In this document: piece by piece, positions 10,297 through 29,820 of the stretch
Position numbering within the stretch: the stretch's first letter is position 1
How the letters are laid out: each line of letters begins with the position of its first letter
Source: a virus
Direction: 5' to 3' (one strand)
Virus record (IMG/VR): IMGVR_UViG_3300044698_000419
Location: 38,153-102,152 of that record
DNA: 64,000 nucleotides
The notes under the pieces: generated by a model
The model's input: the letters and a program-made list of their open reading frames with translations, nothing else
The model's database searches: none
What the model was told of the DNA's origin: nothing
Made by a program: the position numbers and the translations under genes

Positions 10297-10665
10297 TCAG
10301 GAAGCGGTGGGCGCCGTACGGGACTTGATCTCATATTCGAGCTGGCCGTTCTCGACGAACTCCAGCGAGTCCTTCAGGTGCTTGACCGACTCTTCGCTCA
10401 CGGAGGACGCCACCGGGTGCGGCAGGCCCTCCCGGAACAGGAAGTAGATCTCGAAGGCGCGGTTGTAGCCAGGGGTCTCCCAGACTTCGAGCTGCCGACG
10501 GTGGTTCCCCACGTGACGGAAGCCGGTCGCCTCCAGGACGTCCTTGCAGTACCGGACCAGTTCGTCGTTGCCTCCGAGGACGTTCAGGACCAGCTCTTCG
10601 CTGGCCTCGTCCTCGTTGTAGTTGACCTGATCGAGCGTGAAGCTGATCGTTGTCCCTCGGTCCAT
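10297..10665 (-). CDS. Hypothetical protein
   Basis: RBS GAGGAG, ATG 10665. Confidence 0.65.
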   Translation of the reverse strand: MDRGTTISFTLDQVNYNEDEASEELVLNVLGGNDELVRYCKDVLEATGFRHVGNHRRQLEVWETPGYNRAFEIYFLFREGLPHPVASSVSEESVKHLKDSLEFVENGQLEYEIKSRTAPTAS

Positions 10666-10675
10666 CGTCTTCTCC

Positions 10676-10876
10676 TCAGTCGTCGATCGCGGGAAAGCCG
10701 GTCTTCCTGGCGGCAACCCTGCGCCGCCAGACCCTCGCCGCCAGCCTCAGCCTCAGCTCCTTGCGTGCAAGGCCCAAGAACTGGACGGCGAAGGCGTCGG
10801 GAGCCGGAACTTCGTTCGCAACGGCCCAGTCGTAAACCTCGTCCACGGTGGGCTGATCCTTCTCAGCCACATCCAT
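10676..10876 (-). CDS. Hypothetical protein immediately downstream of hammerhead 1
   Basis: GAAGGAG upstream; start may be ATG 10876 or the next GTG. Confidence 0.6.
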   Translation of the reverse strand: MDVAEKDQPTVDEVYDWAVANEVPAPDAFAVQFLGLARKELRLRLAARVWRRRVAARKTGFPAIDD

Positions 10877-10890
10877 CTCCTTCCGAATCA

Positions 10891-10960
10891 CTGACGGCCA
10901 TCGTCAGGCAGCACCTCATGCTGCGACCCCACTGGCTGTGGGGTTTCGGCCTCGGGTCAG
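10891..10960 (-). ncRNA. Type II hammerhead ribozyme 1
   Basis: Minus strand CUGAC-CCGA-GGCC-GAAA-CCCCA/cagccag/UGGGG-UC^GCAGCA/ugagg/UGCUGC-CUGACGA-U-GGCC-GUCAG; full catalytic core; cut predicted between 10925 and 10924. Confidence 0.93.
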
Positions 10961-10961
10961 G

Positions 10962-11177
10962 TCAGCCGCCGAGCTTCTTCAGGCCCTCCGCGATGGCGGC
11001 CAGGTAGTTCACCTGGGCGATCTGCGCCAGGGTGCCGAGGTCCAGTTCGGAGACCTCGTAGCCCTCCTCCTGGGCAGCCTTGAACTGCTCCCCGATGACC
11101 CCGTTCAGGGCGTCGGCGGTCTGCCGGGCGATCTCCAGGTAGTTCGTCGGGTCCGTGATGACGGGAATACCGGCCAT
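10962..11177 (-). CDS. 71-aa hypothetical protein flanked by hammerheads 2 and 1
   Basis: RBS AGAGGA, ATG 11177, coding-like; only ORF between the two ribozymes. Confidence 0.8.
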   Translation of the reverse strand: MAGIPVITDPTNYLEIARQTADALNGVIGEQFKAAQEEGYEVSELDLGTLAQIAQVNYLAAIAEGLKKLGG

Positions 11178-11204
11178 GGCTTTTCCTCTTTCCGATTCTT
11201 CTCA

Positions 11205-11274
11205 CTGACGGCCATCGTCAGGTGCGGCACCACCGCACGACGTCGCTGGCTGCGACGTTTCGGCCTCGGGTCAG
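11205..11274 (-). ncRNA. Type II hammerhead ribozyme 2
   Basis: CUGAC-CCGA-GGCC-GAAA-CGUCGC/agcca/GCGACG-UC^GUGCGG/uggug/CCGCAC-CUGACGA-U-GGCC-GUCAG; stems I and III covary with copy 1; cut between 11239 and 11238. Confidence 0.93.
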
Positions 11275-11561
11275 TTCTTCTCGTCGGCGGGCCCGTCCTC
11301 GGCGTAGTCCGGGTCCATCCAGTTCGCCGCCTGGATGGCGCCACAGGCACCGCACTCACCGCCGTCGGCGGAGTGCTCGTGGTACTTCCCGAACTCGCGC
11401 CGGATGCGCTCCGCCCACAGGCGACGCACGGCCAGCTCGTCCTCGTGGTGGCGCAGGAGCTTGTCCAGGATCGGACCACCACCCTCGGCCTCGGTGAGAC
11501 CTTGCACCACCAGCTCGGCGAGTCGCGCCGTCTCCCCCTTCTTCGGCTTCTCTCTGATCAC
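11271..11561 (-). CDS. Hypothetical protein (H...CxxC); its stop codon lies in hammerhead 2 stem II
   Basis: GTG 11561 overlaps the upstream TGA. Confidence 0.6.
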   Translation of the reverse strand: MIREKPKKGETARLAELVVQGLTEAEGGGPILDKLLRHHEDELAVRRLWAERIRREFGKYHEHSADGGECGACGAIQAANWMDPDYAEDGPADEKN

Positions 11562-11845
11562 GATCCCTCTCCTTCCTCCGGCGGCAGGCTCGGGAGCCTC
11601 GGGGACAGGCGCGTGCCCAGTCCCCATCCCTGAATCCTGCGGTTCTGCTGCATGTCCTCGGCGATCATGCTGACAAGCTCACTCCGGAAGTACTCGCTCC
11701 AGAAGCGGGTGAAGTCCTCCGGGTCCTGATCGAAGTTCTCGATCATCTTCTCGGTGCTGGCGTACGCCAGCGGGATACCGAACAGCTCCAGGATGATGAC
11801 CTCGTGTCCGTTCTCCTGCACCTTGCCGATGCGGATCACGTCCAT
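11558..11845 (-). CDS. Hypothetical protein, paralog of 11845..12147
   Basis: GHEVIILELFGIPLAYA vs GNEVYVLEILGIPVLYA. Confidence 0.7.
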   Translation of the reverse strand: MDVIRIGKVQENGHEVIILELFGIPLAYASTEKMIENFDQDPEDFTRFWSEYFRSELVSMIAEDMQQNRRIQGWGLGTRLSPRLPSLPPEEGEGS

Positions 11846-19040: not shown

Positions 19041-19113
19041 CTGACGGCCATCGTCAGGCGGGGCTTCCGTTCGCCCCGCGACCCCCTCTCAGGGGTTTCG
19101 GCCTCGGAGTCAG
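19041..19113 (-). ncRNA. Type II hammerhead ribozyme 3
   Basis: CUGAC-UCCGA-GGCC-GAAA-CCCCU/gaga/GGGGG-UC^GCGGGGC/gaacggaa/GCCCCGC-CUGACGA-U-GGCC-GUCAG; cut between 19080 and 19079. Confidence 0.93.
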
Positions 19114-29743: not shown

Positions 29744-29820
29744 CCGACTGGAATCGTCAGGGCGGTACCGTCCCGCCTACCGGGAGCCCTTCCCAGGGGC
29801 CCGGTTTCATCCGCTGTCAG
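29744..29820 (-). ncRNA. Type II hammerhead ribozyme 4 (variant, GUA cleavage triplet)
   Basis: CUGAC-agc-GGA-U-GAAA-CCGGG...CCCGG-UA^GGCGG/gacggua/CCGCC-CUGACGA-U-UCC-a-GUCGG; core intact but U.U at the base of stem II. Confidence 0.75.

Follow-up and report, generated by a model that had tools for sequence, protein, structure and literature searches.

A gene of 71 codons (g71) stands between two hammerhead ribozymes of its own orientation in phage DNA, and the question that this locus raises is what the two ribozymes make of its messenger RNA. The window, as we call the whole 64,000-nt stretch analysed here, belongs to a 102-kb IMG/VR virus record (IMGVR_UViG_3300044698_000419). Its nearest named relatives by nucleotide homology are Streptomyces phages of 185–200 kb, and its phage setting rests on homology to the Streptomyces phages Satis, Kela and Frankenweenie. 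The initial annotation had proposed that the ribozymes excise g71 as an RNA whose ends, aligned through identical stem II arms, could be sealed into a stable circular protein-coding RNA. We consider it about 70% probable instead that the hammerheads act between cistrons to process a long leftward phage transcript, from which the gene is released as a linear mRNA. What hammerheads do in phage genomes, where hundreds are found, has been a question since 2011.

Anatomy and identity of the ribozymes

The features are as follows, all on the minus strand and in coordinates of the window.

11271..11627: upstream gene U, 118 codons as listed; homologs Satis gp249, Kela gp250 and Frankenweenie gp270
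11205..11274: hammerhead A, type II, upstream copy (sequence reading and our own covariance model R1)
11205..11221: core-tail hairpin of copy A (folding and N7 covariation)
10925..11238: predicted excised RNA of 314 nt, running 11238 to 10925 (coordinates from the predicted cuts)
11188-11184: Shine-Dalgarno sequence of g71, GAGGA, six bases before the ATG
10962..11177: g71, 71 codons plus stop (open reading frame, filling 216 of the 314 nt)
10891..10960: hammerhead B, type II, downstream copy (sequence reading and R1)
10891..10907: core-tail hairpin of copy B (folding and N7 covariation)
10676..10870: downstream gene D, 64 codons; homologs Kela gp249 and Frankenweenie gp269
19041..19113: hammerhead C, third type II copy, its core and stem II arms matching those of A and B (motif scan, Rfam and R1)
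29744..29820: candidate fourth hammerhead, weaker (sequence reading and folding)

Reading of the minus strand confirms that hammerheads A and B enclose only g71 and its ribosome-binding site, as had been annotated. From 5′ to 3′, both copies consist of a CUGAC arm, a 4-nt bulge, GGCC, GAAA, a stem III hairpin of 6–7 bp and GUC, followed by a stem I hairpin of 6–7 bp, CUGACGA, one extra U, GGCC and GUCAG. The predicted cuts lie at 11239/11238 (copy A) and 10925/10924 (copy B); the coordinates (11238..10925) agree with the earlier proposal that they would release a monocistronic RNA of 314 nt, with the stem I hairpin of A at its 5′ end and the stem III hairpin of B plus GUC at its 3′ end. The UGA stop codon of gene U (11273-11271) sits inside the 5′ arm of hammerhead A. 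Gene D, which has a GTG start 6 nt after GGAAGGAG, begins 21 nt 3′ of hammerhead B. All three copies have a stop codon before them and a Shine-Dalgarno sequence and start codon after them, hammerhead C also lying between a stop codon (19110-19112) and a ribosome-binding site. The candidate fourth hammerhead has a GUA triplet, a GGA/UCC stem II and a U-U mismatch beside the core; it was missed by the Rfam model and by R1 at E ≤ 0.01, and may be a decayed or variant copy.

The catalytic core (CUGACGA, GAAA and GUC) is intact in A, B and C, and an A-U pair closes stem III; each copy carries one extra U after A9. The type II permutation, with stems I and III closed by loops and stem II open, is found both in the order of the elements and in the minimum free energy (MFE) structures of the isolated elements, A and B folded alone giving the active three-way junction at −32.2 kcal/mol. 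The 17-nt word formed by the core plus stem II arm occurs exactly three times in the window, where 0.53 occurrences are expected even with three mismatches allowed. Against the Rfam model Hammerhead_II (RF02276), none of the copies reached the gathering score of 37: copy A, aligned over all 66 model positions, scored 32.9 bits and copy C 24.1 bits, and copy B was unreported even at E ≤ 10. The window copies share with RF02276 the core, the permutation (stem II open) and the order of elements, but have the extra U after A9, a different tail and a stem II of four base pairs (GGCC) where the model has two paired positions.

Relatives were gathered by scanning IMG/VR for the 17-nt word, which yielded 64 stretches, about 50 of them with a complete hammerhead. 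Adding the copies of the window and of the three named phages brought the set to 55 distinct hammerhead sequences, of which 39 were used for the alignment. The covariance model R1, built from these 39 related phage copies with the window's own three included, gave 85.8 bits for A, 85.5 for B and 72.6 for C, scores that apply to members of its training set. Helix cells were paired at 99.7% across the 39-sequence alignment, compared with 33–54% in controls with slid partners, and the observed covariation score was reached by none of 500 shuffles. Both sides had changed in 9 of the 11 pairs of stems I and III (9 of 15 when all pairs are counted). Stem II is invariant in the 39-sequence set by construction and covaries in one further locus (L069, GCCC/GGGC). 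We accept A, B and C as hammerheads, cleavage itself being predicted from sequence.

A contact between the loop of stem I and either stem II or the tail is needed for hammerhead speed at low Mg2+. Loop I, examined by eye, could pair with the 5′-arm bulge in C (4 bp) and in A (3 bp including a wobble), and with the tail in other copies; inspection of the family copies by eye yielded no consistent rule for a loop I-tail pseudoknot like that of the published type II consensus. A scan of bacterial genomes for the 17-mer returned at least 120 stretches. We draw no conclusion on host range from it because only 3 of the matches listed stood in a hammerhead context.

Pairing between the catalytic core and the tail

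The initial annotation had taken the fixed sequence of stem II as a consequence of circularisation. The 17-mer has, however, a pairing of its own: CUGACG of the core pairs with CGUCAG of the tail, and of the four bases in the stem II 3′ strand, three lie in the loop of the resulting hairpin. This core-tail hairpin and the active hammerhead fold are mutually exclusive. Position N7 of the core was compared with the tail in loci whose retrieval placed no condition on the tail. Here hammerheads with C at N7 had the tail CGUCAG 20 times and CUUCAG once, and those with U at N7 had CAUCAG 11 times and CGUCAG never. In the pooled loci N7 and its tail partner were C-G in 68 cases and U-A in 10, with zero swapped combinations. 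Since N7 is the only free position of the core strand, this signal is the maximum covariation that the pairing can show. In 48 of the 78 pooled hammerheads with a tail the 5′ CUGA arm is missing, and the core is consequently the sole partner for the tail in these members. The pairing was not found described in the literature that we searched. By its sequence it resembles an inactive or post-cleavage hairpin built into the ribozyme, and the N7-tail covariation supplies a concrete structural prediction, that of a built-in off-state or product trap.

The CUGANG/CN′UCAG pairing, with the tail just past stem II, was seen in the window at 11205-11221, 10891-10907 and 19041-19057, and likewise in the related loci L055:593-666, L100, L108, L111, L135, L138, L144 and L169.

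Over 50 different phage hammerheads contain this 17-mer, the majority standing singly within the stretch fetched. Because the tail of this family-wide word pairs with the catalytic core, the argument from the fixed arm to circularisation fails, and it is the core-tail pairing that may explain the strong conservation of the stem II arm. In L069, moreover, a pair of hammerheads has GGCC/GGCC as stem II in the first copy and GCCC/GGGC in the second, changes that keep each copy's own pairing and break the pairing between copies on which a chimeric ribozyme would depend.

Folding of longer RNAs was predicted with a nearest-neighbour model without tertiary contacts, and since the energy model ignores such contacts the results carry moderate weight. 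In the ensemble of a 441-nt precursor the core-tail hairpin was occupied at 92% in copy A and 98–100% in copy B, and native stem II at 4% and 0%, respectively. As the precursor equilibrium favours the inactive hairpin, the active fold must be reached co-transcriptionally (kinetically) or with tertiary aid. The MFE structure of the 3′ cleavage product has the stem I hairpin and the core-tail hairpin (−7.0 kcal/mol) adjacent at the 5′ end, with the Shine-Dalgarno region unpaired.

Hammerhead arrays and the fate of the transcript

A pattern scan for the 5′ strand of stem II plus GAAAC, GUC and CUGANGA, with nothing demanded after the core, was combined with a model search and found approximately 108 hammerhead-positive phage loci. 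Within the stretch fetched, about 28 of the 108 have at least two hammerheads on the same strand. The 41 inter-hammerhead intervals from 27 of these loci measure 156–1014 nt (median 473), and the longest ORF occupies a median of 92% of the interval. Most of these ORFs begin within about 40 nt past one ribozyme, and some 29 of the 41 end within the first bases of the next. To judge from these sequences, a single ORF between two hammerheads is the common layout of phage hammerhead arrays. The bracketing of g71 therefore needs no special explanation.

An extreme ribozyme-punctuated operon was observed in a 67.6-kb IMG/VR contig (L083, 165-5166, minus strand), with 11 same-strand hammerheads in 5 kb, most of them spaced by one ORF of 53–239 codons.

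Perreault et al. 2011 (PLoS Comput Biol, PMC3088659) described clusters of hammerheads on either side of single genes in phages and prophages. They reported cleavage of phage hammerheads both in vitro and in E. coli, and suggested gene-length mRNAs. Three type II hammerheads of Desulfovibrio vulgaris, near hypothetical or phage-like genes, also self-cleave in vivo (PMC8782182). The window has the characters of the Perreault arrays: several hammerheads of type II (other types occur in those arrays as well), on the same strand, in gene orientation and in intergenic gaps, bracket one or a few variable genes in a phage context. It differs from them in a new host group, that of large Streptomyces phages related to Satis, Kela and Frankenweenie, in the extension of stem II by a 5′ CUGAC arm that bears the upstream stop codon, and in the pairing of the tail with the catalytic core. 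The g71 cassette belongs with the known phage hammerhead arrays; its layout is usual, not special, and the cassette adds little in kind to the phage hammerheads already known.

The position of the upstream stop codon was scored in 195 related hammerheads (loci L008-L183) where the upstream sequence sufficed. The stop of the upstream ORF lay −1 to +6 nt from the stem II 5′ strand in most of those scored, and the UGA of the CUGAC arm was a true stop in 35 of 41 cases. Because the stop abuts or lies in the stem II arm, a terminating ribosome would cover part of the ribozyme. This suggests a translation-coupled or condition-dependent switch, in which ribosome traffic on the upstream gene would set the partner of the tail and hence whether and when the transcript is cut. 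A tail on the 5′ arm would give an active, extended stem II and a tail on the core an inactive ribozyme, tuning the expression or decay of neighbouring genes. The two mutually exclusive partners of the tail, the inactive hairpin favoured in the precursor ensemble and the stops abutting stem II throughout the family are all consistent with such a switch, and Perreault et al. have suggested regulated cleavage for phage hammerheads (PMC3088659). However, the close spacing of stop and ribozyme may reflect genome compaction alone, and a three-way competition is not general, given the 48 tail-bearing members that do without the 5′ arm. We regard a switch of this kind as an unlikely but live variant of transcript processing.

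We favour the processing of a long transcript, for which the window sequence between 9500 and 13500 offers one weak promoter-like site and no terminator-like site. In this scheme each ribozyme, which fits precisely into the gap from a stop codon to the ribosome-binding site of the following gene, would fold during transcription and cleave after GUC, so that g71 would be freed as a discrete linear mRNA. The upstream RNA would end in the stem III hairpin with a 2′,3′-cyclic phosphate, and the downstream RNA would start with a 5′-OH on the stem I hairpin; both products would keep a terminal hairpin because the ribozymes are of type II. After cleavage, the core and the stem II 3′ arm would refold into a second hairpin (CUGACG/CGUCAG), leaving the Shine-Dalgarno sequence single-stranded. 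Such refolding would favour product release over religation, since it takes the core and the stem II strand out of play. Terminal hairpins, 5′-OH ends and cyclic-phosphate ends slow the RNases of bacterial mRNA decay, and we infer that the hairpins could protect the cleaved RNAs in the infected cell. The downstream mRNA would thus carry a doubly structured 5′-OH end just before a free ribosome-binding site.

The expected outcome is a gene-by-gene insulation of mRNA stability and translation, like that of the engineered insulator RiboJ, which is reported to raise the expression of insulated genes (PMC6206723). RiboJ has a hammerhead just before the ribosome-binding site, a hairpin at the 5′ end of the cleaved mRNA and a site freed from its upstream context, as expected for the window. 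It was engineered from a type III satellite-RNA ribozyme with an added hairpin, whereas in the window the second hairpin is formed by the core of the ribozyme itself and its stem II strand.

The circular alternative holds that the stem II arms shared by A and B align the ends of the excised RNA, that the reverse reaction or host RtcB seals them, and that g71 is translated from the internal ribosome-binding site. The arms of A and B are identical, as had been noted, and for this reason a chimeric nicked hammerhead can be drawn from the two ends; with stems I and III self-contained it could assemble completely. The chemistry invoked (5′-OH and 2′,3′-cyclic phosphate) and the chimeric geometry are correct in principle. 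The chimeric fold lies just 2.5 kcal/mol above the MFE structure of the excised 314-nt RNA, yet chimeric stem II makes up 2% of its ensemble, and 0.1% in the equivalent RNA of Satis. In the MFE structure of the excised RNA the ends are apart, and the 5′ arm pairs with a stretch inside the ORF.

That stretch (window 10988-11003, minus strand, about 236–251 nt into the excised RNA) encodes ...LAAI... and is complementary to the core-plus-arm word at 12 of 13 positions, capturing it in the MFE structure; 11 of 13 are kept in Satis. The complementarity may be due to chance in a GC-rich gene.

Sealing activity would be at hand in the likely host genus, where RtcB was present in 40 of 41 Streptomyces genomes searched, although it was not found in the window's record or in Satis, Kela and Frankenweenie. 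Engineered hammerhead-flanked RNAs of 83–103 nt circularise at 6.7–9.5% in E. coli (PMC11592204), and the two-hammerhead cassette is retained in phages of the Satis group. On the other hand, Perreault et al., who raised circular and spliced products for similar arrays, detected neither in an unpublished test (PMC3088659). The layout of the cassette is the family norm, found in arrays of up to 11 copies; the fixed arm is accounted for by the core-tail hairpin and is also present where the fetched stretch contains a single hammerhead; and the stem II changes of L069 disrupt the cross-pairing. The insert, furthermore, is a protein-coding ORF and not a rod-like structured RNA.

This last point also separates the cassette from retrozymes and viroid-like RNAs, in which two hammerheads of the same polarity likewise release a unit RNA whose 5′-OH and cyclic-phosphate ends can rebuild a ribozyme. 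Those systems rely on ribozymes of type I or III, present as near-identical repeats on either side of a non-coding, highly paired RNA, and they replicate or retrotranspose. In contrast, the window copies differ in stems I and III and are accompanied by no replicase or reverse transcriptase, and the unit is an ORF with a Shine-Dalgarno sequence (216 of 314 nt) whose ends are apart in the MFE structure.

The core-sequestering hairpin alone is no bar to circles made by RtcB, because a ligated circle would also be protected from re-cleavage. A search of metagenome_contigs for the predicted circle junction gave no exact match, and little was expected from assemblies that are mostly of DNA. With nothing in the cassette to mark it as a circle-maker, the stable circular mRNA first envisaged seems to us a distinctly improbable product. 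If real, it would probably extend to many phage hammerhead arrays. Some formation of circles is conceivable given host RtcB and the report from E. coli, but nothing indicates that the circle is the selected product, and circular or spliced RNAs, if formed, are most likely minor by-products of linear processing.

Related phages and the enclosed gene

The arrangement of the window recurs in Satis and in three phages nearly identical to it, with two hammerheads flanking a 72-codon homolog of g71 (gp248 in Satis, 61% identical). Kela and Frankenweenie have at the same site a single hammerhead without g71, directly followed by the homolog of gene D. Satis and its near-identical kin grow on Streptomyces lividans, and as these cultured relatives carry the cassette, both the choice between linear and circular RNA and the core-sequestering hairpin are directly testable.

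The arrangement without g71 recalls the spliced products named as a possibility by Perreault et al. and undetected by them (PMC3088659). In such ribozyme-mediated exon skipping a hammerhead would be rebuilt in trans from the 3′ terminus of the upstream RNA and the 5′ terminus of the downstream one, and their ligation would give a transcript without g71. The arm identity that permits the circle permits this as well, and the g71-less order exists as DNA in Kela and Frankenweenie. The reaction would nevertheless be bimolecular after release and so less likely than the intramolecular case. The single hammerhead of Kela has both stems of B type, as expected of DNA recombination and not of an RNA joint of stem III (A) with stem I (B). 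We consider exon skipping barely credible for this locus. The related idea that the Kela hammerhead is an RNA splice product fixed in DNA was rejected, as both its stems are of B type.

A near-copy of hammerhead B is present in Satis and Kela. Nucleotide homology to Satis stops at window position 10888 (L001:1999 in Satis), three bases past the last base of hammerhead B (10891), and 3′ of this point the genes diverge, with gene D following in the window and gp247 directly in Satis. By this comparison of sequences, hammerhead B marks a mosaic junction between the window phage and Satis. Nine Satis genes around the site were compared, and none is a homolog of gene D; in the gene comparison among relatives, gene D was confined to the window, Kela and Frankenweenie, and g71 to the window and the Satis group.

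It could be asked, then, whether the hammerheads serve mainly as short conserved boundary repeats for recombinational swapping of cassettes, with cleavage incidental. The end of Satis homology at hammerhead B and the differing gene content of the relatives on both hammerhead flanks are in keeping with this. The strong compensatory covariation and the fully conserved core, however, argue for selection on an RNA fold and not merely on a DNA repeat, and neighbouring genes without hammerheads vary in presence among the relatives too. A primary role as repeats is accordingly very improbable, and the gene turnover around the hammerheads looks, from the gene orders compared, like ordinary phage mosaicism at gene boundaries. 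Intercistronic processing remains our preferred reading of the ribozymes themselves.

Neither g71 nor its neighbours matched a family in Pfam, PHROGs or the protein atlas, and the Atlas model of g71 has a pLDDT of 0.59. A word-indexed protein search with g71 returned the protein itself and one further protein, 72% identical, and there were no protein relatives in viral_contigs or metagenome_contigs. The alignment with Satis gp248 has one in-frame indel and a dN/dS of 0.69 over 71 codons, from which g71 is probably coding but fast-evolving.

A look-up over window positions 10600-11700 listed no RNA run. DNA contigs from four metagenome runs were compared with the window over 10500-11800. No contig joining across the cassette was found in these four runs, and one contig of 47.8 kb covers the full 10500-11800 with the cassette intact. 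Two metagenome variants of hammerhead A were observed, given here for the RNA strand: C to U at 11211 in stem II and A to G at 11243 in stem III. Pairing is retained in both as G-U wobbles.
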